Of a stretch of DNA of 55,386 bases, positions 4,820 to 28,949 are shown one piece after another (within the stretch, counting starts at the first letter, position 1; each line of letters opens with the position of its first letter). Both the position numbers and the translations under genes were made by a program. The stretch is taken from the NCBI GenBank assembly GCA_027486335.1, contig JAIXPK010000178.1:1-55386 (forward strand), written 5' to 3'. The stretch comes from Verrucomicrobiaceae bacterium. GTDB taxonomy: Bacteria; Verrucomicrobiota; Verrucomicrobiia; Verrucomicrobiales; V1-33. The notes below the pieces were generated by a model. That model worked only from the letters and a program-made list of their open reading frames with translations. It made no database searches and was not told where the DNA came from.

Positions 4820-4850
4820 GGGGACGGGCGGGAGGGAGAGGGGAGGGTAA

Positions 4851-10189: not shown

Positions 10190-10255
10190 GTGAGGAGCCT
10201 GCCAGTGGAAGCGGGGCGGCGCCAGAACATTCCGGGGAAACCGGGGAGAGAGCGG

Positions 10256-13736: not shown

Positions 13737-14052
13737 GATTTTTGGAGGCTGGATGGTTTGGAGTTGAATTGAGGTGGGAGCGCTTGCGGCCAACGGGCTT
13801 GAAATGGGGGGAGACTGAGGATCTGGGGTATTGATGCAATGATATTTTTTATAAATGTTCTTGCGGCGGGACGGAAATATCGGTAAATGTTAATGAAGTG
13901 ATCCTCGGAATTTCCGGGGTATTTTTTCGGACAAAATGAAGATCTCTCGAAGTATAGCGAACGCGCCCGGGTTGAGCTGGACGTCCATGCGGCCACGCGA
14001 CCGGTTTTTTGATGAGAAGTACCGCATGCTTGGGCATGGCGGGCCGGATCGG

Positions 14053-15654
14053 ATGCGGCTGGGCAATGGAGCGGTTCTGCAGACCTTGACGTGTTCGGTG
14101 CTTGGGATGTCATTGATGGGAATGGGATCGATCATGGCGGACGGGCAACCGACTGCGGGCAGCGGGGACGTCAATGGTGGACAGCCATTGGAGCCTGTGG
14201 TGGATGGTGTCCCGGGGCTCCTTGCTGCTCCGAAGGATGGTGCAGCGGTCCCTGCGGTCCCAGCGGTCCCAGCGGTCCCAGCGGTTTCGGTGCCGTTTGA
14301 TGCCGGTGCGATGACGGGATCGGAGGTGGCGTTGCCGAAGGTGAATCCGCCGGAATTGCCGACGGGAACGGGAGCGGAGGCTGGGCCCAGCGGGGACGGA
14401 TTGGTGCCATTGGATTCGGCGGCCATGGATGCCTCGGGGTCTGGAACTGCGGCGCTGACGCCGGCGGGTAGTGCGGCGGAGGGAGTGGCGGCTGAGGCTG
14501 GCGACGCAGGGCTGGACGGTGCGCGTGAAGTCAGTCGGGAGATGCTGGATGATGTTCAGGACCGCGCGAATGGGCGGCCGTGGACCTTCAATGTGACGAG
14601 CGGGGTGATGTACGATGATAACATTCAGTTCCAGCAAGCGGGGGGGGATCAAATCTCTGACATCATTCTGAATGGCGGGTTTAATTCCAGCTATGCGATG
14701 CGGTCCGGGAGCATCGTGGAGTCCTTGAACGGGGTGCTAGGCGGCAGCTACATGAAGTATCTGGAGAACGGGGAATTCAGCGGATGGAACGGCAATGCTG
14801 GGCTGGCGAGCACGATTCGGTATGGTGATTTTGCGGGTTCGGTGAATGTCACGGCGGCCCAGGTGAATGGGGCGAACCGGTTGGTGGGTGGGTTTTCGGT
14901 GAACCGGAACTACCTTGCCTCGGTGACGGGGAGTTACGATGTCAGCGAGAAGACCCGATTGACGTCGAGCTTCAATCTGAACGTGATGGATTTCGTTCAG
15001 CAATCGTACCAGGCCCAGCAGTTCAATGGGAACAGCACGATGAGTGCGAGTTTCGGGGCGAATTACGCGGTGACGGCGAAGACGCGGCTGGGTGCGAACT
15101 ACATGTGGACGGAGGCGAAGCAGGAGGCATTTTCGAGTTGGGGATTCAGTTCGATCAACGCGACGGCTGAGTGGCAAGCGACGGCGAAGACGGGCTTTAC
15201 GGGGAGTCTCGGGCGTCAGGTGAGTTCGCTTGACGGGGTGGAGACGGGGGACGGCCCGGGATGGATTGGGTCGCTAAATGGCAGTTGGCAGGCATCGGAT
15301 CGGATGGCATTGACGTTAGGCTTTACGAGGTCGGCTGCGGCGGCAGCGGTTGGCGGGAATGGGTCGATGAACTTCAACACGATCAACTTCGGGCTGTCGC
15401 GAACGGTGACGGATCGTTTGACGGGCTCGCTGCAGGTGAGTTACCGGAAGGATGATTATCAGGATTTGGATGGAGGGGATGAGTTTCAGGGGCGGGAGGC
15501 GACTTATTGGAACATTGGGTCGGCGATTACGTGGCGAATCTCGACCCGCGCGATGCTTGGGGCGACCTATGATTTTCAGGATAACTCCTCGACGTTTGGT
15601 CAATGGAATTTCAGTGCGAACCGGATCGGGGTGAATTTCTCGTATGCTTTTTGA
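14053..15654 (+). CDS. Outer-membrane beta-barrel protein, putatively PEP-CTERM/EPS-system associated
   Basis: Signal peptide MRLGNGAVLQTLTCSVLGMSLMGMGSIMA (start 14053; 13936 or 14026 also possible). A ~190-aa low-complexity N-terminal region, then alternating-hydrophobicity strands ending in the OMP-type terminus ...GVNFSYAF. Confidence 0.75.
   Translation: MRLGNGAVLQTLTCSVLGMSLMGMGSIMADGQPTAGSGDVNGGQPLEPVVDGVPGLLAAPKDGAAVPAVPAVPAVPAVSVPFDAGAMTGSEVALPKVNPPELPTGTGAEAGPSGDGLVPLDSAAMDASGSGTAALTPAGSAAEGVAAEAGDAGLDGAREVSREMLDDVQDRANGRPWTFNVTSGVMYDDNIQFQQAGGDQISDIILNGGFNSSYAMRSGSIVESLNGVLGGSYMKYLENGEFSGWNGNAGLASTIRYGDFAGSVNVTAAQVNGANRLVGGFSVNRNYLASVTGSYDVSEKTRLTSSFNLNVMDFVQQSYQAQQFNGNSTMSASFGANYAVTAKTRLGANYMWTEAKQEAFSSWGFSSINATAEWQATAKTGFTGSLGRQVSSLDGVETGDGPGWIGSLNGSWQASDRMALTLGFTRSAAAAAVGGNGSMNFNTINFGLSRTVTDRLTGSLQVSYRKDDYQDLDGGDEFQGREATYWNIGSAITWRISTRAMLGATYDFQDNSSTFGQWNFSANRIGVNFSYAF
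14245..14289 (+). repeat. In-frame 9-bp tandem repeat (GCGGTCCCA x ~4.5) encoding (AVP)n
   Basis: The units gcggtccct, gcggtccca, gcggtccca, gcggtccca and gcggtttcg follow each other directly, inside the disordered N-terminal region of the OMP. Confidence 0.8.
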
Positions 15655-15776
15655 AGCAGATGGCTGACTTGGCATGCATGCTGCTTCTGAATGGATTGGT
15701 TGAGGGCAGAAGCGGGGCTGCGACCGTGGGCCTTGTGAAAACTCTCTAACCCGAAATCGGCGCGCACATTTTCTCT

Positions 15777-15805
15777 TTGACTTTGCAAAAGTCCGAGGCA
15801 TAAGT
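15777..15805 (+). promoter_or_regulatory. Putative sigma70-type promoter of the 15860 PEP-CTERM gene
   Basis: TTGACT (15777-15782), a 16-nt spacer, then CATAAG/ATAAGT (15799-15805), in an AT-rich spacer about 55 nt upstream of the ATG. Promoter rules for this lineage are not established, so confidence is low. Confidence 0.3.
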
Positions 15806-15859
15806 CGGCCAGTGTTGACTAAAAAACAAAAATTGTCCCCAAACCCAACCCAAAAACAC

Positions 15860-16534
15860 ATGAAAACCAAACTAGCCATCTTGGCGCTGGCAGCTACTTC
15901 GGTGGCCGCTAACGCTGCCTACATCTTCTCGTCGCCGACGCCAGAAACTTCGTCCACGACTCAGCCGACCGTTTCTCGGGTCTACGGAGTCGAGTTCACG
16001 CTGAACTCTCCAGCATTCCTCGATACTTTCGCGGTGTATGACTACCTCGGCGACGGTTGGACCGCTGGCGATGCCAAGCAGATCTCGCTGTATTCGCTCT
16101 CGGGCGCGACGTACACCCGGATTCAAAACACGACTCTCACGACGAGCACGGGCTTGGCCACGCTGACTGACTTCGTCGGCGTTCAAGACTTCAAGGTCGC
16201 GAGCTTCGGTGGATCGGTCTCGTTGGCTGCCGGTACGTACTTCATCGGCATGTCCGAAATCCGGTCCGGTGCGAACTTCCACGGGTACACGTCCCCAGAA
16301 GGCACCCTTACGGAGCCTACGATCCCGATGTTGGACTCTTATCGGATTGCCCAATTGGGTGCGACGTCTGGTGTTGCCACGGTTCCAAATCCAACCTTCG
16401 CTGCCAGCACCGTGCGTGATTCCGGCAATGTCTTCGTGATCCCGTCGTTGGTGAACGTTCCAGAAGCTGGTTCGTCCGTGATGGCCTTGGCACTTGGTGC
16501 GATGGTCCTGCGTTTCCGCAGCCGCCGCGCCTGA
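15860..16534 (+). CDS. PEP-CTERM sorting-domain secreted protein (probable abundant exosortase substrate)
   Basis: Signal peptide MKTKLAILALAATSVAANA (ATG 15860). C-terminus VPEAGSSVMALALGAMVLRFRSRRA. Codon usage (TTC, TAC, AAC, GAC, GGC, ACC, GCC) differs from neighbouring plus-strand genes. Confidence 0.85.
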   Translation: MKTKLAILALAATSVAANAAYIFSSPTPETSSTTQPTVSRVYGVEFTLNSPAFLDTFAVYDYLGDGWTAGDAKQISLYSLSGATYTRIQNTTLTTSTGLATLTDFVGVQDFKVASFGGSVSLAAGTYFIGMSEIRSGANFHGYTSPEGTLTEPTIPMLDSYRIAQLGATSGVATVPNPTFAASTVRDSGNVFVIPSLVNVPEAGSSVMALALGAMVLRFRSRRA

Positions 16535-16590
16535 GTTTGTCAAAGGTCTTGATTTCAGGATTGACTGAAGTCAGGCAGACTCCCATACAA

Positions 16591-16627
16591 GCACCTGCCG
16601 GACCTCCGGCAGGTGCTCTTTTTTTTG
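16591..16627 (+). terminator. Strong rho-independent terminator between the PEP-CTERM gene and the exosortase
   Basis: Perfect 11-bp stem GCACCTGCCGG / CCGGCAGGTGC (16591-16601 / 16606-16616), loop ACCT, then TCTTTTTTTT. The T-tract ends 2 nt before the ATG at 16629. Confidence 0.75.
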
Positions 16628-16628
16628 A

Positions 16629-18296
16629 ATGAAACCGAATTCATCAATGGGTTGGAAGGCTGCGATTCCACAGTCGTGGGGGACTCGTGTCCTGCTTGTG
16701 GTGGCGGTCGTGGGATTACTTCCATTGCTTGGGGATCTTGCGATGCGATTGTGGGCGAACGAGCCGTACCGGTTTTTTCCATTGGCGTGGGTGTGTGGCT
16801 TGGTGGTGTGGATGGTGCGTTATGGGGCTGAGCTACCGGCGGTGAAGTATCCGAAGGCATTGGTGGGGGTGCTCTTTGGGTTTGCGGCGTTGTTTTTTGC
16901 GTTTGCGGCGTTGCGGTGGTCTCCATGGGCAGGAGGTGTTGGGCTGCTGGCATTCATGGGGGCGGCATCGGTGATTCGCGGGGGGTGGAGAGCCTTGAGG
17001 ACGCTATGGCCCCCGTTGTTATTGATTGCGATTTCGCTGCCACTGCCGCTTGGGGTGGACACGATTTTCATGCTGGAGCTGAAGAAGGTGGCGGTGACGG
17101 TATCGAGCAGCCTGCTTGATTTGATGGGGATTGTGCATGTGAGATCGGGGACGGTGCTGGAGCTACCGGCGACGCAGTTGCTGGTGGAGGATGCGTGTTC
17201 GGGGATTCAGTCGTTCATGGCGGTGGCTGCGTTTGCGGCGTTGATTTTTGTGCTGGAGAAGCGGCCGTGGTGGCATTGGCTGCTGCTGTCGGTGTTTGCG
17301 TCGATGGTGGTGATTGCGGCGAATGTTCTGCGGATCACGATGGGGACGTTTTGTCTGGTCCACTTCAACTGGGATCTGCTGAGCGGGACACCGCACCTTG
17401 CGTTTGGGGCGGTGATTTTTGTGGTGGAGCTGCTGCTGGTGTTGAGTTTTGATCGATTTCTGGCGTTTTTCGAGATTGGGGTGCAGCACAGTGCGAGTGG
17501 AGCGGTGATGGGGTTTCAGAGGCGAGGAGAGGAGAGGGCGGTGGCGGCACCTGTGGTGGTGGGTGGCGAGGGGGTGCTGCCGTTGGCGGGCAAGCGGACG
17601 TTCCTGCTGGTGGCGTGTCTTGCGGTTTTCGGGCTGGCGCTGGGGGCGCGCGGGGTGGTTCATTTTGCGCAGCGAGCGCCTGAGGAGTCGACGGTGAGTT
17701 ACGGGCCGGCGGATTATCCGGAGCTGAAGTTTGAGCTTCCGAAGGTGGTGGGGGGATGGACGCAGGGGGAGAGTGTGCCTGCGGAGCGATCGCTTGAGAC
17801 GATCGGGTTGAGGACGAAGATCTGGATGTTTACGAGTGGGGATCTGAGTGTGTTGATGTCGATTGACTATCCGTTTGACCATTTTCACGATCTTCTGAAC
17901 TGCTACACGACGGCTGGGTGGGCGACGAACATTGCGTCGCCGGTGTCGGCGCTGACGCCTGAGAGGCCGCCGATTGCGTATCTGAATCTGGCGCGGCGCG
18001 GGTTTGACCGGACGGAGGTCTGGTATGCGAACTGTTACGGGAACGGCGAGTGGGCGGGGAAATCCGCGGCGCAGTCCGGGGAGGCGAGGAACGTGTCGTT
18101 CTGGGACCGCGTGCTGCGGAAGACGAAAGTGGAGGCGGAGGAGGGCATTGGGCAGTTGCAGTTCCGGGTGCAACTGTGCTGGACGGGGCTGGCTCCTCTG
18201 CTTGACGCGGATCGAACATCGATTCAGCAGTTGTTCGAGGAGGCTTCGGCGCGTCTGGCGGAGCAGGTGAAAACCCAGTTGAACGAAGCGAAATGA
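16629..18296 (+). CDS. Exosortase (PEP-CTERM transpeptidase) with an EpsI-like C-terminal periplasmic domain
   Basis: Polytopic N-terminal half with the exosortase catalytic pattern: Cys in LLVEDACSGIQS, Arg in ANVLRITMG and a downstream His in GTPHLAFG. An extra ~250 aa follows a further TM segment, as in EpsI partner proteins. Subfamily (Xrt letter) not assignable by eye. Confidence 0.85.
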   Translation: MKPNSSMGWKAAIPQSWGTRVLLVVAVVGLLPLLGDLAMRLWANEPYRFFPLAWVCGLVVWMVRYGAELPAVKYPKALVGVLFGFAALFFAFAALRWSPWAGGVGLLAFMGAASVIRGGWRALRTLWPPLLLIAISLPLPLGVDTIFMLELKKVAVTVSSSLLDLMGIVHVRSGTVLELPATQLLVEDACSGIQSFMAVAAFAALIFVLEKRPWWHWLLLSVFASMVVIAANVLRITMGTFCLVHFNWDLLSGTPHLAFGAVIFVVELLLVLSFDRFLAFFEIGVQHSASGAVMGFQRRGEERAVAAPVVVGGEGVLPLAGKRTFLLVACLAVFGLALGARGVVHFAQRAPEESTVSYGPADYPELKFELPKVVGGWTQGESVPAERSLETIGLRTKIWMFTSGDLSVLMSIDYPFDHFHDLLNCYTTAGWATNIASPVSALTPERPPIAYLNLARRGFDRTEVWYANCYGNGEWAGKSAAQSGEARNVSFWDRVLRKTKVEAEEGIGQLQFRVQLCWTGLAPLLDADRTSIQQLFEEASARLAEQVKTQLNEAK

Positions 18297-19774
18297 GCGT
18301 AAAGAAATCGATGTCGGGGTGGTGGGAGTCGCGCCATATTCCGTGGCTGCTTTGGGGCATACCGGCGCTGCTGAGTCTGCTGATGTTTCTGGCGCTGTAT
18401 ATTTACCGGACGGAGTGGAATCCGCTGACGGTGCATGATCGGTATGCGGCGGTGAAGAAGACGGCGATGGCGCAGGGGGACTACCGGACTGCGCGGATTG
18501 CGTGCGAGCGTGCGCTGGAGATCACGCGGGCGGACGCTTATTTCAAAGCACGGTATCCTGAGCACTTGTTTGATCTGGCGATTTGTCTGATCAATCTGGG
18601 TCGGCCGCTGGATGCGCGGCACCTGATCAATACGGTGGCGCCGTTCGACACGGCGGAGTCAGCGTATTCGTATCCGCCTGCGCACCTTTATATGGCGAAG
18701 TTGAAGTGGCTGGAGACGAAGGAGAGGACGCCCGAGCTGATTGCGCAGGTGGAGCGGCATCTGCTGCGGGCGGCGACGGATGAACCGGACATGGCTGAGG
18801 CGCACCAGATGCTTGGGGAGTTGTATCTGAGCCGGAAGGACTGGGAGAAGGCGAAGCGGCATCTGCTGAAGGCTGCGGATCAGCGGGGTGATGCGTATCT
18901 GCTGCTGGCGCTGGTGAGTCAGGGGACGAACGATCCGGAGGGGATGAGACAGTGGAACGGGCGGGCACAACAGTACTACCAGCAGCGGCTTGGGGCGGCA
19001 CCGAAGGAGGACACGAGGATGCGGATGGGGTTGGCGAGGACGTATCTGCTGGCGGAGGAGTACGAAAAAGCAGCGGACACGTTTCTGGTCGGGTACAAGC
19101 GGAGCGGGGATCCTGTCTATACCGGGGCTATCGGGGCGGTGTATGGGAACTGGGTAGAGGCGCTGAAGAGGAAGAAAGCGCCTGCTGGAGAGGTGCTGAA
19201 GAGGATCAGTCAGGGGCTGACCTTTGACAACCGGAACGAGATTCTGCTGATGGAGCTGGTGCGGTTGTCGAAGCAGAGCGGGGAGGCAGGCGAGGAGGCG
19301 TCGAAGGCTGTGCAGAGCATGCTGGCGGCTGGGTCGTCGAATGGGATGCTGCATTTTGTGCTTGGGGTGGCATCGCTTGAGAAGAACGATGAAGCTGGCG
19401 CGGCGGCGCAGTTTGATCTAGCGTTCAAGGAGTCACCGGAGCTGCCGCAGATTGCGAACAACTTTGCGATGGCGCTGGCGTTCGGGGCGGAGCCGGATCT
19501 GAAGCGGGCGATGACGGTGATCGAGCAACTACTGGTGAGGTATCCGAACCTGCCTGCGGCGCTGGACACGCGTGGGCGGATTCATCTGAAGCTGGGTGAT
19601 TTTTCAGCGGCGGTGGTGGACCTGAACGCGGCGCTGCCGCAACTGCCTGGGTATGAGAGAAGCATTCACACGGCGCTGGCGGAGGCATATGACGGGCTGA
19701 AGCTTTCTGAGCTGGCGAAGCAGCACCGGGAGCTTGCGAAGCCGCAGACGCCAGGGGCGGCGGTGGTGCCGTGA
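18293..19774 (+). CDS. Membrane-anchored TPR-repeat protein (PEP-CTERM system-associated type)
   Basis: ATGA overlap with the exosortase stop. N-terminal TM (WLLWGIPALLSLLMFLALYIY), then repeated TPR-like helical pairs (...AEAHQMLGELYLSRKDWEKAKRHLLKA...). Confidence 0.8.
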   Translation: MSVKKSMSGWWESRHIPWLLWGIPALLSLLMFLALYIYRTEWNPLTVHDRYAAVKKTAMAQGDYRTARIACERALEITRADAYFKARYPEHLFDLAICLINLGRPLDARHLINTVAPFDTAESAYSYPPAHLYMAKLKWLETKERTPELIAQVERHLLRAATDEPDMAEAHQMLGELYLSRKDWEKAKRHLLKAADQRGDAYLLLALVSQGTNDPEGMRQWNGRAQQYYQQRLGAAPKEDTRMRMGLARTYLLAEEYEKAADTFLVGYKRSGDPVYTGAIGAVYGNWVEALKRKKAPAGEVLKRISQGLTFDNRNEILLMELVRLSKQSGEAGEEASKAVQSMLAAGSSNGMLHFVLGVASLEKNDEAGAAAQFDLAFKESPELPQIANNFAMALAFGAEPDLKRAMTVIEQLLVRYPNLPAALDTRGRIHLKLGDFSAAVVDLNAALPQLPGYERSIHTALAEAYDGLKLSELAKQHRELAKPQTPGAAVVP

Positions 19775-19926
19775 GGAATTGAGAGATGAGGTGGGGAGCG
19801 GTGGGATGGGGGATGAGGACGGGGCCGGAAGGAAGGTGCTGGGAGTGAGGGGCCTTGGCGGTGGCGTGTCTGGTTTGCCCAATTTCTGCTTTCCTTTTTG
19901 GCACATTGAATTAACGGAGCGGGAGT

Positions 19927-20517
19927 ATGGATTTTCGAAACTGGTTCTTGGCTGTTGGTTTACTGACGGTGATTGGCGCTGGATCTATTGCCGCGCAGGA
20001 GGGAGTGGGGACGGAGCCTGCGGTGCGAGCGGTGGAGGAGTATCGGATGAGCCCAGGGGATGTGGTTGCGGTGCAGGTTTTTGAGGAGCCGGAGCTTGAG
20101 GTGGGGAAGGTACGGCTTTCTGAGAACGGGAAGGCGACATTGCCGCTGATTGGGGAGGTGGCGTTGTCCGGGCTTGGGGTGAAGGCGGCTGCGGGGGTGA
20201 TTGAGGCGGCGTACCGGAAGGGGTATCTGGTTAAGCCAGCGGTGACGGTGACGGTGCTGGAGAAGAAGCGCGAGCGTTTCAATCTGATTGGGCAGGTGGC
20301 GAAGCCGAATGCCTATTATTTTCCTGAGTCGGGTACTCTGACGCTGCTGGATGCGATTGGGCTTGCGGGAGGGTTCACGCGGATGGCGAATCAGAAGGTA
20401 ATCGTCACGCGGAGTTCTGGTGCGGTGGTGAAGATTGACGCGTCGAACCGGAATGAGGCGCTGAAGTTCCGGCTGCTGCCTGGGGATACGGTGGACTGCC
20501 GGGAGCGTGGTTTTTGA
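19927..20517 (+). CDS. Polysaccharide export protein (Wza/EpsE-like, Poly_export + SLBB)
   Basis: Signal peptide, then YRMSPGDVVAVQVFEEPEL...ENGKATLPLIGEVALSGL...A...IE.AY and ...FNLIGQVAKPNAYYFPESGTLTLLDAIGLAGG. Confidence 0.85.
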   Translation: MDFRNWFLAVGLLTVIGAGSIAAQEGVGTEPAVRAVEEYRMSPGDVVAVQVFEEPELEVGKVRLSENGKATLPLIGEVALSGLGVKAAAGVIEAAYRKGYLVKPAVTVTVLEKKRERFNLIGQVAKPNAYYFPESGTLTLLDAIGLAGGFTRMANQKVIVTRSSGAVVKIDASNRNEALKFRLLPGDTVDCRERGF

Positions 20518-20579
20518 GGTTTGAAGAGGAACTGTCCGTGAGGATTGAAATTTACGTCTGCGCTACATTGTGACTGCCT

Positions 20580-22691
20580 ATGTTTGACAAGAACCGACTC
20601 AGCCTACTGCTCTTCCGATTCTGGTGGATCATTCTATTGAGTGTGATTGTAGCGATGCTAGGGTCGTTTGCGTGGGCACAGCGGCAGCTGCCGGTGTACA
20701 CGACAAAGGCGGTGGTGGAGGTGGCGCAGCAGGAAGAGCGGATTGTGAATGTTCAGTCTGTGAAGTCGGAGAATCCCGGTGGGATGGATTACATTCTGAC
20801 GGTGGCAGAGTCGTTGAAGGCTGACGCGGTGCTGCTGGGAGCGGCGAAGAATTCTGATCTTTACGAGGAACTGAGGCGAACTGGGATGGCGGATGCGGCG
20901 ATTGTGAAGCTGCTGGCGACGAAGGTTGTGACGATCTGGAGGAAGGGGACGAGGCTGATTGATGTGGTGGCGACGGACGTTGATCCTGCGCGTGCGGCGA
21001 AGCTTTCGAATTCTGTGGTGGAGCAGTATCTGGCGCTGGCGACGTTGAATCGGAGCACGATCAGCGGTGAGGCGACTGAATACCTGAAGGAGCAGGCGAA
21101 GCGGATTGACGAGGAGCTGGCGACGGCGCACAAGGAAGTGGCGGAGTTCCGGGTGAAGCACAAGAATCTGCCTCTTGACGAGAAGGCGGGCACATCGGTT
21201 GAGCGTGCGACGGAGTTGGGGACGAGGCTGCTGGATGCGAAGTCTCTGCAGGCGAGTCTTGTGGCGGACCTTGAGCGAGCGCGGGCGATTCCGCCGGATG
21301 ATTATGATGCGATGCTCAAGATTTCGTCATTGGCGGCGATTCCGGCGGTGGCGACGGCGAGGGGGGTGCTGGATACGCGGGTGGAGGAGTTTGAGATTTT
21401 GAAGCGGCGGTATCTGGAGCTGCATCCGAAGTACATCCGTGCGAAGGAGAACATTGAGTTGGCTCAGGGGGCGTTGCGCCGATTGCTTGGGGATGCATCG
21501 CCACTGCTGGAGGAGCGGGCGGGGCAGGCTGCCGCGATGGTGAAGAATCTGGAGGCCACGGTGGCGGCGATGAGCCAGGATAGTTCGAGCCTGAATGCGA
21601 TTCTGGTGCCTTATCAGGAACTCAAGCAGAAAGTGGAGACGCTGCAGAAGCGGTATGATGAGATCACGGGGCGGATTGCGGACATTGGCATGAAGGAGAA
21701 GCGGGCCGACCGGGTGCCGGTGTATCTTTCTGCGGCAGCGATGGTGCCGTCTGTGCCGGACCGTGTGAGTACGCCTGCGCTGCTGCTACGTTCTGCGATT
21801 GGTGGGATTCTGCTTGGGCTTGGGATTATCTTTCTGATTGACCGGCTGGATCAGACCTATCAATCGGTTGAGCATGTGGAGGCGGACATGGGAGTTCCTG
21901 TGCTGTCGACGATTCCTGATGACTCACTGGAGAAGCGTCGGCTGGGGGGATTGCCGCTGGTATCTGACCGGCAGAGTATTCAGGCGGAGGCGTTCCGGAC
22001 CTTGCGGGCGACGTTGAGCCTGCTGGGGAGCGAGGAGGCGAGGCGGGTTTTTCTGATTACATCGGCGGTACCTGGAGAAGGAAAGAGCCGGACGTCCGGG
22101 AATCTGGCGGTGGCGTTTGCGCAGCGAGGGTTGAAGACTTTGCTGATTGATGCTGACCTACGGCGTCCGGCGCAGCAGAATCTGTTTGGCAGTGAGTTGC
22201 GACTGTCGCCGGAGGCGGTGGAGATGAATGCGGGAGCTGACGGCAGCGCGAAGGCCGGGAGGATGATTGGGCTGTCAGACCTGTTGAGCGGGAATGTTTC
22301 GATGGAGCTGGCGACGCTGGGCACATCGGTGGACAATCTGAAGATTATTCTTGCCGGGGGGCGGTCGCCGCAGCCTGCTGACTTGCTGGCGCAGACGCGA
22401 TTCACCGAGATGCTCGAGCGTGCGAAGGGGCTGTATGACCGGATCATCATTGACACCCCGCCGGTGAATTCGGTGGCGGACGCCCTGGTGATGGCTCCGC
22501 ATGCGAATGCGGTTTGTCTCGTGGTGCATTCCGGGAGTACGAGTCGGCGATCGGTGCAGCGAGCCATTGAGAGTCTGAAGAGGGCGAAGGGGAATACGGT
22601 GGGGATTATTCTGAACCGGCAGAGGGGTGGGGTGTACGGGTATTACTACAATTACCGGTATGATCCGTACGTGAAGGGATCGAAGGCCTGA
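20580..22691 (+). CDS. Polysaccharide co-polymerase / BY-tyrosine kinase (Wzc/GumC-like)
   Basis: N-terminal TM, Wzz-like coiled-coil periplasmic region and a second TM. Then P-loop SAVPGEGKSRTSGN, Walker B RIIIDTPPV and a Tyr-rich tail GGVYGYYYNYRYDPY. Confidence 0.9.
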   Translation: MFDKNRLSLLLFRFWWIILLSVIVAMLGSFAWAQRQLPVYTTKAVVEVAQQEERIVNVQSVKSENPGGMDYILTVAESLKADAVLLGAAKNSDLYEELRRTGMADAAIVKLLATKVVTIWRKGTRLIDVVATDVDPARAAKLSNSVVEQYLALATLNRSTISGEATEYLKEQAKRIDEELATAHKEVAEFRVKHKNLPLDEKAGTSVERATELGTRLLDAKSLQASLVADLERARAIPPDDYDAMLKISSLAAIPAVATARGVLDTRVEEFEILKRRYLELHPKYIRAKENIELAQGALRRLLGDASPLLEERAGQAAAMVKNLEATVAAMSQDSSSLNAILVPYQELKQKVETLQKRYDEITGRIADIGMKEKRADRVPVYLSAAAMVPSVPDRVSTPALLLRSAIGGILLGLGIIFLIDRLDQTYQSVEHVEADMGVPVLSTIPDDSLEKRRLGGLPLVSDRQSIQAEAFRTLRATLSLLGSEEARRVFLITSAVPGEGKSRTSGNLAVAFAQRGLKTLLIDADLRRPAQQNLFGSELRLSPEAVEMNAGADGSAKAGRMIGLSDLLSGNVSMELATLGTSVDNLKIILAGGRSPQPADLLAQTRFTEMLERAKGLYDRIIIDTPPVNSVADALVMAPHANAVCLVVHSGSTSRRSVQRAIESLKRAKGNTVGIILNRQRGGVYGYYYNYRYDPYVKGSKA

Positions 22692-22901
22692 GTGCGGGCC
22701 GACGGGGATGGCTGGAGTGGGTGGTGGGGGGTGATGAGGGGCTGGGCGTGAATATTGAGAGGAGGTGCAAATTCAGGTGGCGATTGTCACGGAAAGTGCC
22801 TACAATCAAGGAGTGGCTCTGATTCGCGTGAATGATCGGCGGAGCTTATCAACCGATGTCAATCAACTGGATTATACTCCTTGGATTCCACTTCTAAGCC
22901 A

Positions 22902-24305
22902 ATGAGGCCGACAGCCATAGATCTTCAAGCTGAAGGGGTTGATCGAGCTGTGATTCCCGAGGCTTTTGTGAAGAGCGGGATGAGGAGCGATGGATTCCGG
23001 GCATTTTTGCTGGTGGTGGCGGACTGTGTATTTGCGTTGGCTATTTTTCATACGGCGGCGGATCTGTGGGTATCGACGCGGATGGTGCCGTTGCTTGTGG
23101 TGGTGCCGGTGGTGATAACAATGTTGTGTTCGGGGCTTGCGGGAGCGTACCGGCAGCGGGAGGATTTTCTATCGCTGCGGTTTGCGGTGGAGCATTTTCT
23201 GGGGCAAGCGGCGGCGGCGTTCATTTCGACTGCTGTGGTGAGCCTGCTGCTGACGTATGGGTCGCCGTCGCAGCCGAGCCGGGGGTTGATGCTGACGTGG
23301 CCGTTTCTGTATTTTGTTCCGTCGCTGATCTTCCGCCGGGCGGTGGCTGGCCGGGAGCGGCGGATGCGCGGCACGCCGGTGATTGCGGTGATTGGGAACG
23401 AGGATGATCTTGGGCGGTTGCGTGCGGAGCTGCACCAGCAGGACTGGCACGGGCGGTCGCGTTGTTTTGGTCCGGACTGTTTTCTGAGTCCTGAGTCGGC
23501 GGCGGAGGCGATTGGGCCGCATGGTGGGAGGCTCTCAGCTGTGGTGCTGGGGCCGGGGCTGACGAGGCTGACGAGTGCGCACTTCACGGCGCTGATGGGG
23601 ACACATCTGGGGTGGGCTCCGGTGTACACGTGGGAGGGATTTTTTGAGAATCACCTGAAGAAAGTGAGTCTGGATTCATTGACGGCGGACTGGATATTTC
23701 AGGGTAGTTTCCGGATGGGTTCGCAATCGGTGCATCAGACGATGAAGCGCGCATTTGATCTTGTGTCGGTGCTGGTGCTTGGGGTGGTGACGCTGCCGCT
23801 GATGCTGGTGATTGCTGTTTTTGTGCGGTGCAGTTCGCCTGGGCCGGTATTGTTTTTCCAGCATCGGCGGGGGAGGTACGGGAGGACATTCAACCTTGTG
23901 AAATTCCGGACGATGACGATGGGGAATCAAGGGGGTACGACGGAGAGTAACGACAAGAGGATCATCAAGGGCGGGGCGTTTCTGAGGAAGTACCGGCTCG
24001 ATGAGTTGCCGCAGTTGTGGAATATTCTGACGGGAGACATGAGTCTGATTGGGCCGAGACCGGAGTGGATCCGATGTGCGGACGAGTATTCGGAGCTGAT
24101 TCCGTTTTATGATTTGCGGCATCTGGTGAGGCCTGGGCTGACAGGGTGGGCGCAGGTGAACTATCCGTATGGGCAGGATGTGAATGATGCGCGGGCGAAG
24201 CTTTCGTATGATTTGTTTTACATTCGGAATTGTTCTTTGATTCTGGATTTTGTGACGGTGGTGAAGACTGGGTATGTGATGTTGTTCGGGCGCGGGGGAC
24301 GGTGA
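22902..24305 (+). CDS. Priming undecaprenyl-phosphate sugar-phosphate transferase (WbaP/EpsB-type)
   Basis: N-terminal TM bundle plus a C-terminal bacterial sugar transferase domain (KRAFDLVSVLVLG..., FNLVKFRTM, DELPQLWNILTGDMSLIGPRPE, GLTGWAQV). ATG 22902 preferred over TTG 22881. Confidence 0.9.
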   Translation: MRPTAIDLQAEGVDRAVIPEAFVKSGMRSDGFRAFLLVVADCVFALAIFHTAADLWVSTRMVPLLVVVPVVITMLCSGLAGAYRQREDFLSLRFAVEHFLGQAAAAFISTAVVSLLLTYGSPSQPSRGLMLTWPFLYFVPSLIFRRAVAGRERRMRGTPVIAVIGNEDDLGRLRAELHQQDWHGRSRCFGPDCFLSPESAAEAIGPHGGRLSAVVLGPGLTRLTSAHFTALMGTHLGWAPVYTWEGFFENHLKKVSLDSLTADWIFQGSFRMGSQSVHQTMKRAFDLVSVLVLGVVTLPLMLVIAVFVRCSSPGPVLFFQHRRGRYGRTFNLVKFRTMTMGNQGGTTESNDKRIIKGGAFLRKYRLDELPQLWNILTGDMSLIGPRPEWIRCADEYSELIPFYDLRHLVRPGLTGWAQVNYPYGQDVNDARAKLSYDLFYIRNCSLILDFVTVVKTGYVMLFGRGGR

Positions 24306-24816
24306 GATTGGCGGGTGTGGCCTTGACGCAGGGAAGCGGGTTGGGAGGTGATCGCGAGAGAGTCGGTGATGCGGTGAAGACTTCCTTGTTTTCTGGAGGT
24401 TATGGATGCGGCAGGGGTTAAATCTGGTTCACAATCCGGCAAACTAAACGATAGGAAGAGGGTTCCACTTGTGTGCGGGAGGGGATGGGAATACTAAGGG
24501 TGGAGGTTGAGTGTTGTGATGAGAAGCGCGACCCGATTTCGACATGCGTGACCAAAACTACCAATGAAGAATGGTTTAGGAGTATGACTGATGGCGCTGA
24601 TGGAACCGGCATCATGGGGGCGGTGTTTTCTGAGGGGGGCTGGTATGGTGGTGTGTTGGTGGGGGCGGGAGGATTGATGAATGGATGGCGGGTTGGTTTG
24701 GCGCGAATCCTGCGACTGGCTTGTTTTCAGGACGGTCAGGGATGGGCACGGTCTGCGGCTCCTGCGTTCACTGGATGGCCGGTTTGGGTTTCTGGAATTC
24801 ATTTTATTGTGTAGAC

Positions 24817-26301
24817 ATGCGGACGGGTTCTCACAGCAGCATACTGAAGGCGACAGCGTGGACGGGATCGTCGCAGGTGGCGGTTCTTGTGATGGGATTG
24901 ATGCGGAGCAAGCTGACGGCTGTGCTGCTGGGTCCTGGGGGTGTGGGGCTGACGGGGACGTATCTGACGATTGCTGGGTTCATTGGGGGGATTGCGGAGC
25001 TGGGGATTCCGCCGAGCGGGGTGCGTGCGGTGGCGGAGGCATGTGCGACGGGTGATGAGGGGAAGGTGCGGCGGATGGCAGCGGCGCTGAGGGCGGCGAT
25101 GCTGGCGACTGGGGTGGTGGGGATGGTGGTGGCGCTGGTGCTGGCGTATCCGGTGTCTGTGATGACTTTTGGGAGCGGGGAGCGATGGGTGGACCTTGCG
25201 CTGCTTTCGGTGACGGTGCTGCTGGCGAATTATGCGTCCGGGCAGCGGGCGTTTCTGCAGGGGATGCAGCGGGTGAGGGAGGTGGCGCAGTGTCAGGTGG
25301 TGAGCACGTTTGCGGGGCTGATGGTGGGAGGCGTGTTGCTGTGGGTGTTCGGGGAGCGGGGGATTGTGGCGGCGCTGGTGGCGAATGGGGTGGCGGCGGT
25401 GGTGGTGTTCGGGCGGGAGACGAGGCGAGGAGGAGGGAGTGTGGAGGAAGGGGCCTCATGGCGTGAAGCGCTGAGGGACTCGAAGGGATTGCTGGCGCTG
25501 GGGGCGGCGTTTTTGTTTCAGAATCTGGTGCTTGGGGTGGGAGGGTACTGGTCGCGGGTACTGATCATGGGGCATGGTGGGCTTGATGCGCTGGGTTTGT
25601 ACACGGCGGCGTGGACATTGTCTGGGTATGCGGTGCAGGTGATTCTGGCGGCGATGGGGTCGGATTTTTACCCGCGGCTGACGGCTGTGGCTGGGGAGTC
25701 TGAGGCGATGAACCGGCTGGTGAACGAGCAGATTGAGATGGGGGTGCTACTGGCGACGCCTGCGTTGTGCGGGATGCTGACGCTGGCACCGTTGGTGCTT
25801 GGATTGGTTTTTTCGCGGGATTTTTCCGGGGCGGTGCCGCTGGTGCAGCTGATGTCGTTCGGGGCATCGTTCCGGGTGGTGGCGTGGCCGATTGGTTATA
25901 TCATGCTGGCGCGGAGCCGGAAGGGGATGTTCATGGCGTCGGAGGCGTTCGGGGCGGTATGCGGGCTGGTGCTGCTGGCGGCGGGACTGGGGTGGTGGGG
26001 ATTGAACGGTGCTGGGGTGGCGGCCGCGGTGTCGGCGTTTCTGTTCGGGGTTTTTGTATGGGGATGCGCGCGAGTGGTGACGTCGTTCCGGTTCAGTCGA
26101 CGGAGTCTTCTGATTGTGATTGGTCACTGGTTGCTGCTGGGGGTGGGTTATGGGGTGACGCGGGTGGTTTCCGGGGTGCCGGGGATGGTGGCAGGGGTGG
26201 CGCTGACGACGGCTGCGGTGGCTGGGTCTCTTTACGGGTTGAACCGGATGGTTGGATTCAACGCATGGCGCGCCCTGACGGGGAGGTGGCGCCGCAGCTG
26301 A
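24817..26301 (+). CDS. MOP-superfamily polysaccharide flippase (Wzx-like) 1
   Basis: ATG 24817 inside ORF 24685. About 12-14 TM helices with the N-terminal pattern ...AVLVMGLMRSKLTAVLLGPGGVGL... typical of PST/Wzx translocases. Confidence 0.8.
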   Translation: MRTGSHSSILKATAWTGSSQVAVLVMGLMRSKLTAVLLGPGGVGLTGTYLTIAGFIGGIAELGIPPSGVRAVAEACATGDEGKVRRMAAALRAAMLATGVVGMVVALVLAYPVSVMTFGSGERWVDLALLSVTVLLANYASGQRAFLQGMQRVREVAQCQVVSTFAGLMVGGVLLWVFGERGIVAALVANGVAAVVVFGRETRRGGGSVEEGASWREALRDSKGLLALGAAFLFQNLVLGVGGYWSRVLIMGHGGLDALGLYTAAWTLSGYAVQVILAAMGSDFYPRLTAVAGESEAMNRLVNEQIEMGVLLATPALCGMLTLAPLVLGLVFSRDFSGAVPLVQLMSFGASFRVVAWPIGYIMLARSRKGMFMASEAFGAVCGLVLLAAGLGWWGLNGAGVAAAVSAFLFGVFVWGCARVVTSFRFSRRSLLIVIGHWLLLGVGYGVTRVVSGVPGMVAGVALTTAAVAGSLYGLNRMVGFNAWRALTGRWRRS

Positions 26302-26312
26302 AACATGTCGCT

Positions 26313-27395
26313 ATGAAAGCATCATCAGATCGAACATTAGAGGCTGGAAGCGTCGCGGATGCCGCTGGTGAAGTGCCGGTGCGTGCCGGTGGCGAGCGGC
26401 GCGTGGCGATAGCGGGGGAGCCGGGGGAGCCGGGGGAGTTGCGGGCGACGGTGGCGGTCTGCACATACAACGGTGCGGATCGATTGCCGCGGGTGCTGGC
26501 GGCGCTGGAGCGGCAGACGTTTCCGATGGAGAGCTGGGAGGTGGTGGTGGTGGACAATGCGAGCACTGACGAAACGGTGAGGGTGGTGGAGGGATGGCTG
26601 GGGCGGAGCGCTTGTCGGATGAGCGGGCGGGTGGTGACGGAAGTAAACCAGGGGTTGTCGTTTGCGCGGGAGCGTGCGGCGCGGGAGGCGAGGGGGGAAC
26701 TGGTCTGTTTTCTGGATGACGACAATATTCCGTCGCCCGATTGGCTGGAGGTGGCGGTGGGTGCGTTTGCCCGGCGGTCCGAAGCGGGGGTGATCGGGGG
26801 GAAGGTGGAGGCGTGCTGGGAGGCGGAGCCGACGCCGCTGGCGGAGGCGGTGGCGGAGTTTGCGCTGGCGATCGTAGATCTGGGGCCGGAGCCCCGGCTG
26901 GTGGAAGGTCCCGGTTCGGGGATAGTGGGTGCGGGGATGTGCGTGCGACGGGAGTTGTTGTTGAGGATATTTGATGCGTTCCGCTTTCGGGAGCGGATTT
27001 CGGACCGGCGGGGGGACGATCTGATCAGTGGTGGGGATCTGGCGGTTTCGGTGGCGGCGCGGATGCTGGGGATGGAGTGCTGGTATGAACCGGGGATGAG
27101 GATGGAGCACGTTCTGCCGCCGTCGCGGATGGCGAAGCCGTATTTGCTGCGGCTGTTTTCGGGGATTGGGCGTGGGCAGGCGGCGCTGAGGCGGCTGCAT
27201 GACTGGCGGGCGAGGTCGCCGCTGGCGTGGCTGATCGGGCTGAAGGATTTGATGCGGTGGTTGGCGGGGGATTTGAGAGGGCCCGATGAAGCGAAGGGAG
27301 GGGAGACGGCGGATTTGGCGCGGGATCTGCATGAGTTGCGGCAGGCGCAGACGCTGGGGAGGGCGACGCAGGCGTTGAGGTGGCCGCTGAACTGA
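26313..27395 (+). CDS. Glycosyltransferase family 2 (paralogue A)
   Basis: ATG 26313 inside ORF 25767. VAVCTYNGADRLPRVLAALERQT, VVVVDNASTDET, FLDDDN (DXD). Roughly half-identical by eye to the 33519 gene along its full length. Confidence 0.85.
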   Translation: MKASSDRTLEAGSVADAAGEVPVRAGGERRVAIAGEPGEPGELRATVAVCTYNGADRLPRVLAALERQTFPMESWEVVVVDNASTDETVRVVEGWLGRSACRMSGRVVTEVNQGLSFARERAAREARGELVCFLDDDNIPSPDWLEVAVGAFARRSEAGVIGGKVEACWEAEPTPLAEAVAEFALAIVDLGPEPRLVEGPGSGIVGAGMCVRRELLLRIFDAFRFRERISDRRGDDLISGGDLAVSVAARMLGMECWYEPGMRMEHVLPPSRMAKPYLLRLFSGIGRGQAALRRLHDWRARSPLAWLIGLKDLMRWLAGDLRGPDEAKGGETADLARDLHELRQAQTLGRATQALRWPLN

Positions 27396-27733
27396 ATGGT
27401 GAGGGCGATGTAGAACGGGGAGCGAGATCGGTGTTTCTGTATGAACCTGTGATGAATGTGAGGAAGGTATGCGGTGTTGACGGGGCGCGATTTTGGCGAC
27501 GAGGCGGCATTGCGGGCCGTGGAGAGGCCGTTGTTTTGGGTGTCGCGCAAGTGTCAGAGCAAGAGACTGTTGGGATGGCAGCAGGCCTACGTGGAAAAGT
27601 GTCGCGATCCGAAAGTATTAGCTTGAATTCATTTTTCCGGAAGGTAGGTAACTGCGTTCGCAGAATTCCGAACAAGGGCTGGTCTCAGGAAAGCCTGAGG
27701 CGGCCGGAAGTATCGCCATTCCAGACAATTGTG

Positions 27734-28213
27734 ATGAACCGAATACCCTCGATCGAAGCTGAAGCGGGGGACGATTGTGCGGTGGCGGGAGTGGCTGAGT
27801 ATTTTGGGGGGCTGGCGTCTGCGATCGGGTTGCCAAGGACGGTGGGGAGGATTTACGGGGTGCTTTTTCTGTCGCGGGAGGCGATGACGTTCAACGAGGT
27901 TGTGAAGGCGGCGGGGATCAGCAAGGCGTCGGCTTCGACTGGGTTGAGGATTCTGACGCGATTGCGGGCGGTGCATCCGGTATCCCGCGGAGGGGAGAGG
28001 CGGCCGAGGTTTGAGGCGGAGACGAGTGCGCGGCGGCTGGTGAGGGGGGTGCTTGCGGGGACAATGCTGCCGCAGCTTGAGGCAGGGGAGCCATTGCTGG
28101 CGCGGGTGGCTGATGAGGATCCTTTTGTTTCGCGCCGGATTGAGCGGCTGCGGTCGTGGCATCGTGGAGCGCGGGAGTTGCTGCCGATGATCGGGCGGTA
28201 TGGGACGGTTTAA
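27734..28213 (+). CDS. Winged-helix transcriptional regulator (GbsR/MarR-like)
   Basis: ATG 27734 inside ORF 27380. Contains GLPRTVGRIYGVLFLSREAMTFNEVVKAAGISKASASTGLRILTRLRAV (helix-turn-helix plus wing). Preceded by a 338-nt non-coding leader. Confidence 0.7.
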   Translation: MNRIPSIEAEAGDDCAVAGVAEYFGGLASAIGLPRTVGRIYGVLFLSREAMTFNEVVKAAGISKASASTGLRILTRLRAVHPVSRGGERRPRFEAETSARRLVRGVLAGTMLPQLEAGEPLLARVADEDPFVSRRIERLRSWHRGARELLPMIGRYGTV

Positions 28214-28293
28214 ACGAGAATTGCGTGGAATCCGACACGCCGGGACATGGATGGGAGATGATTGGTGGCTTTCCTGAAAAGGAACTGGCCACG

Positions 28294-28305
28294 GGCGGTA
28301 GCGTG
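28294..28305 (+). promoter_or_regulatory. ops-like element (exact GGCGGTAGCGTG) in the leader of the distal EPS block
   Basis: 12/12 identity to the E. coli ops sequence (consensus GGCGGTAGnnTG), on the non-template strand for downstream transcription. It lies 30 nt upstream of the ATG at 28335 in an intergenic leader. Function here is unproven. Confidence 0.4.
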
Positions 28306-28334
28306 ATTTGGAACCGGGGAGGCGGGTGCGGGTG

Positions 28335-28949
28335 ATGATGGTGCGCGTGGTGGCGGTGCTGCTCCGGGTGGCGGCGGTGGTGCTGCTGCTGGTGGCGTTG
28401 CGAGGGCCGCTGTTGCGGGGTGCGGCGCGGTGGTGGATTGTGGATGAGGCGGTGGTGGCGGGGGATGCGATTGTGGTACTTGGGGGAGGAGAGGAGTATC
28501 GGCCATTTGCGGCGGCGCGGTTGTGGAAGGCGGGGATGGCACCAGTGATTCTTGTGCCTGATGTGCGGCTGCATCCGACGGAAGCGCTGGGGTTGCGGCC
28601 GGGGACGACGGAGGTGATTCTTGGGGTATTGAAGGCGGAGGGGGTGCCTGAGGGGGTGGTGGTGAGGATAGGGAAGGGGGTGACGAGCACTAGGGAGGAG
28701 GCATTGGCGGTGAGGGAGTGGGTGGAGGGTGCGGGGAAGGTGGGGCCGCGGTTGCTGATTCCTACGGATCCGTTTCCGACGAGGAGGACGAACTGGCTGT
28801 TTGAGAAGACGATTCCGGGGTGTGAGGCGACGGTGGTGCGGACGGATCCGCGGGATCTTGAGGTGGAGCGGTGGTGGACGAGCGAGGCGGGGCTGATTTC
28901 GTTTCAGAATGAAGTAGTGAAGTATGTGCTGTACCGGGTGAAGTACTGA
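28335..28949 (+). CDS. YdcF/ElyC-family (DUF218) protein
   Basis: N-terminal TM (VRVVAVLLRVAAVVLLLVAL), then DAIVVLGGGEEYRP...AARLWKAGMAPVILV...TSTREEALAVREW. ATG 28335 has GGAGG 12 nt upstream. Confidence 0.75.
   Translation: MMVRVVAVLLRVAAVVLLLVALRGPLLRGAARWWIVDEAVVAGDAIVVLGGGEEYRPFAAARLWKAGMAPVILVPDVRLHPTEALGLRPGTTEVILGVLKAEGVPEGVVVRIGKGVTSTREEALAVREWVEGAGKVGPRLLIPTDPFPTRRTNWLFEKTIPGCEATVVRTDPRDLEVERWWTSEAGLISFQNEVVKYVLYRVKY

Follow-up and report, generated by a model that had tools for sequence, protein, structure and literature searches.

The 55,386-nt stretch of DNA analyzed here (hereafter the window) is contig JAIXPK010000178.1 of a Verrucomicrobiaceae bacterium (assembly GCA_027486335.1). 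It carries a 12-mer identical to the ops element, the site at which RfaH is loaded in Escherichia coli, and this 12-mer appears to be the ops part of a JUMPstart-like cis element (a hairpin followed directly by ops) in the leader of a long block of glycan genes. The same combination of hairpin and ops is conserved in Verrucomicrobiota and Kiritimatiellota, where it is linked to genes for NusG paralogues and for winged-helix regulators of the GbsR/MJ223 type. We predict with moderate confidence that a specialised NusG paralogue is loaded at this element while RNA polymerase pauses. Its parts in the window are as follows.

28294-28305, + strand: ops-type 12-mer GGCGGTAGCGTG, located by pattern search, with the predicted pause position T11 at 28304.
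28265-28292, + strand: JUMPstart-like hairpin with outer stem GTGGCT/GGCCAC, a 2-nt bulge on the 3' side, inner stem TTCCT/AGGAA and loop GAAA.
28261-28305, + strand: match to the Rfam JUMPstart family RF01707 (model positions 7-38 of 38; 24.9 bits, E 0.002).

The 12-mer matches the ops consensus GGCGGTAGnnTG exactly, is present in a single copy and is the sole match to the degenerate consensus GGCGGTAGNNTG on both strands of the whole window. It shares its strand with the regulator gene and with all 23 genes downstream, whose first start codon follows after 29 nt; this bears out a first-pass annotation of this DNA that had reported an exact ops 12-mer on the non-template strand of these genes. 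That annotation had also estimated 0.007 chance copies, with a few-fold more on the G-rich strand, and this was about right: 0.01 copies of the exact 12-mer are expected per window (1 of 100 dinucleotide shuffles). For the degenerate consensus the expectation is 0.21 matches per window, with at least one match in 20 of 100 shuffles. Matches at 11 of the 12 bases were found at 10957-10968, as previously listed, and additionally at 19857-19868 and 23413-23424. All three are on the + strand inside genes, and they stand, besides the exact site, against an expectation of 0.67 matches with at most one mismatch per window. No hairpin-plus-ops element was found at these three positions in a covariance-model search, and the most likely source of these matches is the richness of this strand in G, the GC skew of the + strand being +0.23 to +0.48 in every 2-kb bin of the window. 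Because of this skew and of the three near-matches within genes, the chance level in one window is not decisive; we take the decisive evidence to be the conservation of the element in orthologous and non-orthologous leaders.

Related loci were fetched with the downstream DUF218 protein or the regulator as anchor and not by the motif itself. They include the following leaders.

L001: 81% DUF218 identity to the window; leader nearly identical; 12-mer GGCGGCAGCGTG.
L002: 76% DUF218 identity; an otherwise different 400-nt leader; 12-mer GGCCAAGGGCGGCAGCATT.
L005, L018 and L019: 37-42% DUF218 identity; C-rich strand; exact GGCGGTAGCGTG.

In the last three loci a regulator gene homologous to that of the window stops 81-88 nt ahead of the 12-mer. 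The regulator-anchored search led to the window's own clade (64-97% regulator identity), in which the gene order is the same, running from exosortase through sugar transferase to regulator, leader and variable glycan genes. The upstream exosortase and export genes and the regulator are kept among the clade relatives, and the genes past the leader differ, being of the ABC-transporter type in L142-145. The leaders of L001, L002, L141 and L142 carry GGCGGCAGC, and the clade leaders retain the hairpin and GGCCAnGGGCGGCAGC while their flanks diverge, which argues that the element is under selection. Conservation in orthologous leaders, which the first-pass annotation had set as a check on its proposal for the 12-mer, was thus observed for hairpin and GGCGGYAGC.

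The hairpin ends at 28292 and a single nucleotide separates it from the first base of ops at 28294. It folds with a minimum free energy of -17.6 kcal/mol as RNA (z -2.19) and -9.5 kcal/mol as DNA (z -3.34). The bases before the 12-mer had been noted earlier to resemble the 3' end of JUMPstart, and the RF01707 alignment, which covers the stem (UGGU...GCCA) plus GGGCGGUAGCGUG, agrees with this. Its score of 24.9 bits, obtained in a sensitive 351-nt search that covered the leader, is below the gathering score of 35, so that the JUMPstart cutoff was failed, and no Rfam match was found at gathering thresholds over the whole window.

The spacing of the enterobacterial element, in which the 3' arm of the stem (..CCA) is followed by two bases and then by ops, is seen in the RF01707 alignment of the window and holds in 57 elements from the Planctomycetes-Verrucomicrobia-Chlamydiae (PVC) superphylum. 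In the PVC matches the outer stem always ends in GRCC(A), its 3' side is followed by a bulge of 2-3 nt, and the inner stem varies in sequence. A strict version of this geometry fits 37 of the 57 distinct elements, against 0.75 expected by chance and a maximum of 3 in 300 trials in which the upstream 41 nt were shuffled. At the R of GRCC the covariation with the pairing base is without exception (T:A 27, C:G 10), 31 distinct inner arms occur, and folding of the 57 elements gave a mean z-score of -1.59. The outer stem often contains a U.G pair, by which the structure can be assigned to the sense strand. These alignment-free tests carry the evidence for the hairpin in place of the covariance-model alignment (A5). 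In the latter, obtained with a covariance model (R1) of an ungapped, 3'-anchored alignment, only 48% of the cells were paired and slid controls scored equally, so that it was disregarded as an alignment artefact; model R1 was used to find the extra elements L182, L200, L016 and L014.

A scan for GRCCANNGGCGGTAGCGTG in one genome per species (185,579 species) gave at least 119 stretches, where about 140 chance matches are expected by our own arithmetic (17 specified bases, roughly 1.2e12 positions). Judged by taxonomic label and sequence context, about 42 of the 119 stretches listed belong to Verrucomicrobiota (Verrucomicrobiales, Akkermansiaceae, Luteolibacter, Haloferula, Prosthecobacter, Opitutales, Puniceicoccaceae, Lentimonas, Thalassobacterium) or to Kiritimatiellota (Pontiella), and about 20 to Enterobacterales. 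The remaining listed matches are scattered, mostly within apparent genes of high-GC organisms, and look like chance. In dozens of verrucomicrobial and kiritimatiellotal genomes GRCCA-NN-GGCGGYAGCnTG stands behind the covarying hairpin on the sense strand, ahead of sugar-nucleotide or polysaccharide genes, and the non-random sense-strand placement anticipated by the first-pass annotation is therefore seen in the PVC loci. Among 75 proteins scanned, the first genes past the PVC elements encode members of the GDP-mannose dehydratase/epimerase family (27), UDP-galactopyranose mutase (11) and DegT (5), the others including nucleotidyl transferases, UDP-glucose dehydrogenase and exosortase.

Some individual elements have features of their own. 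One Verrucomicrobiales contig (L074) carries two complete hairpin-plus-ops elements at a distance of 1.3 kb (938-1001 and 2234-2297, - strand). Carriers of the element that are in culture include Pontiella sulfatireligans F21 (L028), Thalassobacterium maritimum SDUM461003 (L042) and isolates of Luteolibacter and Akkermansiaceae. Tandem repeats adjoin the element in several loci, namely seven copies of TCGTCCT directly past ops in L018 (775-835) and, upstream of ops, eight copies of ATAATTC in L063 and runs of GTTCTTC and CAAGAAC in L074. Typical verrucomicrobial elements were found on contigs labelled Comamonadaceae (L112) and Bifidobacteriaceae (L016), and an enterobacterial-type element on one labelled Chryseobacterium (L088); all three are probably mis-binned or contaminant contigs in public assemblies or metagenome-assembled genomes (MAGs).

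The open reading frames (ORFs) of the fetched loci were searched with E. coli RfaH and NusG. In 17 motif-anchored PVC loci a gene on the strand of ops, ending 59-176 nt before it, encodes an NGN+KOW protein of about 180 aa, and in 17 of the 17 this gene follows a homologue of the window's regulator. With an anchor independent of ops, the codon-level pattern LFPGYxxAxF, 15 of about 30 high-scoring paralogue genes were found to have CCR-NN-GGCGGYAGC 88-162 nt downstream, and positions 1-5, 8 and 9 are invariant among the passing sites. The paralogue family comprises 4,783 sequence clusters at E <= 1e-8, with PF02357 on all matches listed, and is named transcriptional antiterminator RfaH by JGI and NusG family protein of Verrucomicrobiota by NCBI. 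The linked paralogues share 23-25% identity with E. coli RfaH and NusG, in alignments that span both the NGN and the KOW domain. They score 60.5 bits with the NusG model and highest with the RfaH model, and a profile search of the PDB with the family gave E. coli RfaH first (57.8 bits), narrowly ahead of a NusG entry. An AlphaFold2 model of one paralogue (P0026) has a predicted local distance difference test score of 60-87 in the NGN domain and 27-45 in the C-terminal domain, which is of mixed strand and helix.

Sites of this kind were also seen outside the PVC group: an ops-like GGCGGYAGCYTG, often preceded by GGAAY, lies 74-205 nt past NusG-paralogue genes in a Nitrospiraceae MAG (L163, about position 2290) and in the metagenome loci L300, L258, L255, L244 and L233. 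This suggests that ops-type sites may adjoin paralogue genes in further phyla.

Of all protein neighbours of the element, the winged-helix regulator is the most constant; its gene in the window is followed by a palindrome.

27734-28213, + strand: gene for a GbsR/MJ223-type winged-helix regulator of 159 aa, identified by profile and translation.
28223-28240, strand not assigned: palindrome GCGTG-N8-CACGC, a candidate operator or promoter-associated site.

A profile of the regulator family matches MJ223 (PDB 1KU9) over its full length (residues 15-165, E 2.5e-26), and the window's regulator scores 17.6 bits with Pfam MarR_2 (cutoff 27; MarR_2/HTH E 0.004) and 41 bits with the NCBIfam CudC/GbsR-like model (cutoff 218). 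The full-length match together with the scores below cutoff places it in the broad GbsR/MJ223 family and in no curated subfamily. The neighbour had been called MarR-like at first pass, which is right at the level of the MarR superfamily. It is not an incidental neighbour: in 26 distinct loci a homologue is encoded ahead of the element, in the same orientation. Regulators of the window's clade are about 35% identical to the other element-linked regulators.

The palindrome GCGTG-N8-CACGC is unique in the window and, with 0.65 copies expected by chance, is not significant alone. In the window, L001, L141 and L142 the interval from the regulator stop to the hairpin contains GCGTG-N7/8-CACGC in differing flanks, and L018 has a version with N3. 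In 18 of 56 PVC elements an exact GTTCA-N8-TGAAC (often TTGTTCATTTTnnATTGAACAAA) is centred 100-133 nt upstream of ops, the carriers including L037, L053, L057, L116, L139, L149, L152, L157, L167, L173, L194, L055, L069 and L076. The same palindrome occurs upstream of elements with no regulator gene nearby, and ahead of the regulator genes themselves in L018 (40-62), L019 (9123-9145) and L330 (5852-5869). We infer that the palindrome is the operator of the GbsR-type regulator at the operon promoter and that ops is read by the NusG paralogue. In L330 (5277-7573), found through a relative of the regulator with 43% identity (P0017), the genes were observed in the reverse order of NusG paralogue, palindrome, regulator and epimerase/sugar genes, and no recognisable ops-like 12-mer was found at this locus.

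Three arrangements of these parts were observed. In the first, which is found in the 17 motif-anchored loci and in others found later, the order is regulator, paralogue, palindrome, hairpin-ops and sugar genes. In the second it is regulator, sometimes the palindrome, hairpin-ops and genes (the window, L001, L005, L018, L019, L040, L105, L127 and L141-145). In the third, with about a dozen examples such as L063, L076, L086, L129 and the two copies in L074, hairpin-ops has neither gene nearby; the element of L002 likewise has no adjoining regulator gene. One MAG, CAMAUV01, has the first arrangement on contig L193 and a separate minimal element (TTGGTC/GACCAA plus GGCGGCAGCTTT) on L014, in an intergenic gap of a DUF218-containing locus. 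The second and third arrangements and the CAMAUV01 pair fit factors that would act in trans, as RfaH does in E. coli.

The constancy of the regulator raises the alternative that hairpin and GGCGGYAGC are the target of the GbsR/MJ223-type protein, as a DNA operator or as an RNA or single-stranded DNA ligand, and that in this clade the operon is controlled without a NusG paralogue. A regulator homologue is indeed found in 26 distinct loci against 17 for the paralogue, it is present alone in the window's clade, and in five two-part loci the distance of its stop codon from ops is nearly constant (81-88 nt). The 12-mer, however, is no palindrome, and dimers of the MarR/GbsR type bind to inverted repeats; a separate conserved palindrome (GCGTG-N8-CACGC, or GTTCA-N8-TGAAC elsewhere) is available upstream and also ahead of regulator genes. 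Furthermore, about a dozen elements have no regulator gene nearby, and the enterobacterial JUMPstart has the same spacing between hairpin and ops with no such regulator. We therefore consider control by the regulator through this element to be unlikely.

If the element is instead a pause and loading site for a NusG paralogue, RNA polymerase would start between the regulator gene and the hairpin, perhaps under the control of the GbsR/MJ223-type regulator at the palindrome, and would pause at the eleventh base of ops, T11 (28304). The exposed non-template strand would then form a small ops hairpin with bases 5-6 in its loop, and an RfaH-like NusG paralogue, encoded elsewhere in the genome, would be loaded at the pause. 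These steps follow the E. coli model of an ops pause at position 11, a non-template hairpin and RfaH loading (PMC11001881). Once loaded, the paralogue would keep the polymerase resistant to pausing and to Rho-type termination over about 25.6 kb. The upstream RNA hairpin may prolong the pause or the loading window, as the distance from its end to the predicted pause (12 nt in the window, 14-15 nt in most PVC elements) is close to that in hairpin-stabilised pauses. Such a course would entail leader transcription, pausing, non-template-strand recognition, antitermination and a paralogue acting in trans in this genome.

Several observations weigh against this prediction, the first being that no reader was found close by. 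Searches with Pfam and with RfaH and NusG gave no NGN or KOW domain in any ORF of the 55-kb window, and no paralogue gene follows the regulator in seven of seven clade loci (the window, L001 and L141-145). Codon-biased scans for LFPGYxxAxF, which are of limited sensitivity, gave 60 matches among genome representatives, none of them from QQNF01 or JAIXVE01, and at least 120 matches in metagenomes, none of those listed with a clade-type regulator. A paralogue gene at the head of the controlled locus, a trait of UpxY, is thus present in the 17 relatives and in others found later and not in the window or its clade, where the reader is putative and would have to act in trans. No sigma-70 consensus site was found in 27300-28450, and neither a promoter nor a transcription start was located.

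The linked paralogues themselves fall short of the curated models. The RfaH model TIGR01955 gives 81.9 bits (L116) and 79.5 bits (L043) against a cutoff of 144.5, the UpxY model NF033644 77.6 bits (L116) and 49.7 bits (L043) against 100, and the LoaP model 55.6 bits against 125. The residues of E. coli RfaH that contact ops, which we take to be K10, H20, R23, Q24 and R73, are kept only in part (alignment A2): paralogues of the Verrucomicrobiales type keep H20 only, with Q at position 10 and H or Q at 73, those of the Opitutales type keep K10 and R73 and not H20, and neither type keeps R23 or Q24. The linked paralogues therefore appear not to be bona fide RfaH.

Finally, position 6 of the 12-mer is T in the window and C in L001, L002, L141 and L142, that is, in four of the five clade leaders, and beside verrucomicrobial paralogue genes it is T in seven sites, C in eight and A in one; C6 variants linked to paralogue genes include L149, L152, L153, L167, L188 and L193. 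RfaH recruitment in E. coli needs T at this position and does not accept C (PMC11001881). A test of whether T6 is kept under selection thus failed, on account of both the C6 of the clade and the mixture beside paralogue genes. The 12-mer of the window can be regarded as one allele of a GGCGG-Y-AGC-n-T-G family, and its full agreement with the E. coli sequence is in part fortuitous within this family, given that the four nearest orthologous leaders have C6; an exact enterobacterial sequence, as the first-pass annotation had it, is not a conserved trait. What stands of the RfaH-recruitment site proposed there is a conserved sense-strand leader element of hairpin plus ops with RfaH-like paralogues linked to it elsewhere; RfaH itself does not stand, with the paralogues below the TIGR01955 cutoff and none of them in the window or its clade. 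The T/C mixture beside paralogue genes and the differing contact residues indicate that the reader would be RfaH-like in its role and not in its detailed specificity.

Another alternative is a factor-independent leader element, read by no dedicated NusG paralogue in this clade (which might, for example, have lost it), in which an RNA hairpin and a consensus pause serve transcription-translation timing or mRNA stability. It would account for the covariation of the hairpin and its G.U pairs on the sense strand, for the two scans of limited sensitivity that found no clade paralogue, and for the free variation (T or C) of position 6, the base read by RfaH; in addition, Rfam classes JUMPstart as a cis-regulatory RNA, and polymerases of diverse origin respond to ops as a model consensus pause (PMC7593976, PMC11001881). 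It accounts less readily for ops positions 1-5 and 7-9, which are invariant without a pairing partner across families with scrambled flanks and so point to recognition by a protein or a polymerase surface and not to RNA structure alone, nor for the tight linkage of the element, C6 variants included, to NusG-paralogue genes elsewhere in the phylum. We judge an element of this kind to be rather improbable, about on a par with control by the regulator. A functionless G-rich 12-mer on a G-skewed strand, which the skew, the three near-matches within genes and the 0.21 expected matches to the degenerate consensus might suggest, is already refuted by the conservation of motif and hairpin, both among orthologous leaders and in distantly related genomes with the opposite skew. 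Their association with polysaccharide operons and NusG-paralogue genes and the 0.01 copies of the exact 12-mer expected per window also speak against it.

Building on the predicted loading site, a wider and more speculative proposal is that hairpin-ops, the paralogue encoded in cis, and the GbsR/MJ223-type regulator with its operator form an ancient two-factor module of Verrucomicrobiota and Kiritimatiellota that controls polysaccharide operons, with one factor at initiation and the other at elongation. The enterobacterial RfaH/JUMPstart system would then be one stripped-down or horizontally exchanged branch of it. We hold this to be possible and put it forward tentatively. If it were true, the T or C at loop position 6 would mean that the readers recognise the non-template hairpin in a way unlike RfaH, and the window's clade would be a natural case of a site served purely in trans or by a different reader.

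The genes around the element in the window are consistent with the boundary seen in its clade, and the block downstream is the following.

28335-53954, + strand: glycan-specific block of 23 co-directional genes, from DUF218 to acyltransferase, defined by ORFs and Pfam.

The regulator ORF stops with TAA at 28211-28213 and the next gene starts with ATG at 28335, which leaves a leader of 121 nt; ORF ends and Pfam matches thus agree with the first-pass annotation of such a leader between a MarR-like regulator and 23 polysaccharide genes, and several of the 4-nt overlaps it described were found among the ORFs of this block of about 25.6 kb. By Pfam, the block encodes DUF218, pyruvyl transferase, FrhB-like and flippase-like proteins, GT2/GT4 glycosyltransferases, Wzy, acyltransferases, epimerase-like proteins and others. 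Upstream of the regulator, at 13936-27395, lies an export set of beta-barrel porin, EpsH exosortase, TPR protein, Wza, Wzz/kinase, initiating sugar transferase, flippase and GT2. On this gene content the element would head the glycan-specific half of an exosortase-type exopolysaccharide locus. Terminator-like sites in the 25.6-kb block are at shuffle background (14 vs 10.8 and 10 vs 5.9) and give no argument either way. A promoter of the extracytoplasmic function (ECF) sigma type, GGAAC-N16-CGT across 28281-28304, was considered and rejected because GGAAC falls in the variable inner stem and is replaced by GGGAC or GGGAT in L141, L142 and L002. Extension of the window through identical proteins gave short contigs only, with nothing new past the window ends.

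The window has other features besides those of the leader. Its strand composition is unusual in itself, with a skew far above ordinary replication skew (the relative L001 has a GC skew of 0.42). At third codon positions G makes up 64% and C 11% in + strand genes, and C 70% and G 12% in - strand genes; the opposite bias of the two sets indicates a property of the DNA strand, independent of the direction in which genes are transcribed. At 365-946 (- strand), 15 kb from the EpsH exosortase gene (16629-18296, + strand), lies the gene for a CHRD-domain protein that has a PEP-CTERM sorting tail and is likely to be a substrate of the EpsH exosortase sorting system. A run of - strand ORFs occupies 2613-11146 and includes an ORF of 1,358 aa (6113-10189) with no Pfam match; one ORF of the run matches DUF8575 in relatives.

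RfaH and ops provide the textbook example of an elongation factor that is loaded in a sequence-specific manner, and the system is seen as essentially proteobacterial. In the open-access text that we searched, no paper was found that describes NusG paralogues, RfaH or JUMPstart in Verrucomicrobia; RfaH and Verrucomicrobia were mentioned together in passing only, and the JUMPstart query was too lax. Matches to the RfaH model have been reported in 23 phyla, with about 95% of them in Proteobacteria (PMC7593976). In the loci described here the ops word recurs in another superphylum, equally spaced from a hairpin, at the head of polysaccharide operons, and it is genetically tied to a paralogue family and a winged-helix regulator. 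The elements provide concrete, testable recruitment sites for non-proteobacterial NusG paralogues, a natural experiment (T versus C) on the loop base that defines RfaH specificity and, through the covariation, evidence of selection on the JUMPstart hairpin itself. Verrucomicrobia are abundant in soil, freshwater, marine and gut habitats, and in their exopolysaccharide loci the element marks the boundary between conserved export genes and variable glycan genes, which should help in annotation and engineering.

Among known systems, resemblances of different extent were found. In the pauses of the his type, which are stabilised by a hairpin, an RNA stem ends about 11-12 nt upstream of the paused 3' end, a distance like that between 28292 and 28304 in the window. 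Most PVC elements have 14-15 nt instead, and the part given here to the hairpin is a suggestion drawn from this spacing; pausing at the E. coli ops has been described as hairpin-independent and pre-translocated (PMC11001881). The plasmid-borne PrfaH of IncX plasmids resembles the PVC arrangement in that an RfaH-type paralogue gene lies beside its own ops-like site. The IncX system (PMC11880322) differs in being proteobacterial, on a plasmid and with conjugation genes, in having the site past the prfaH promoter and not after the gene, and in showing no GbsR-type partner. LoaP of Firmicutes and Actinobacteria is likewise a specialised NusG paralogue encoded beside long biosynthetic operons, with a leader hairpin taking part in its recruitment. 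LoaP recognises an RNA hairpin, however, and is not known to recognise an ops DNA sequence.

The UpxY/UpxZ system of Bacteroides shares with the PVC loci a NusG paralogue at the head of its presumed target locus and a second small regulatory gene, in an arrangement repeated across a phylum. The PVC partner differs from UpxZ in being a DNA-binding winged-helix protein encoded before the paralogue and not after it, and the cis site is ops-like.

The closest likeness is to the enterobacterial ops/JUMPstart-RfaH system (E. coli and Salmonella; rfb, waa, cps, hly, tra; RF01707), with an identical 12-mer on the sense strand in the leaders of long polysaccharide operons, a stem-loop whose 3' arm (..CCA) ends two bases ahead of ops, and, in relatives, linked NGN+KOW paralogues for which RfaH models give the highest scores. 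The two systems differ in the following respects. Position 6 is Y in Verrucomicrobia and not an obligatory T; the hairpin is longer and two-tiered, in hosts of the phyla Verrucomicrobiota and Kiritimatiellota; and the linked paralogues share about 23% identity with RfaH and do not reach the TIGR01955 cutoff. Whereas rfaH is unlinked to its targets in enterobacteria, the PVC paralogue is usually encoded directly upstream of the site, the window having none, and a GbsR/MJ223-type regulator gene with an upstream palindrome belongs to the PVC module. On balance, the element would appear to work like the enterobacterial JUMPstart/ops, of which it fails only the quantitative Rfam cutoff, and the linked proteins like RfaH and UpxY, of which no curated cutoff is passed. 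Relative to the literature found, what appears to be new is the deep conservation of hairpin and ops in the PVC superphylum and their linkage in cis to the paralogue gene, together with a seemingly obligatory GbsR-type partner with its own palindrome and the Y at position 6.

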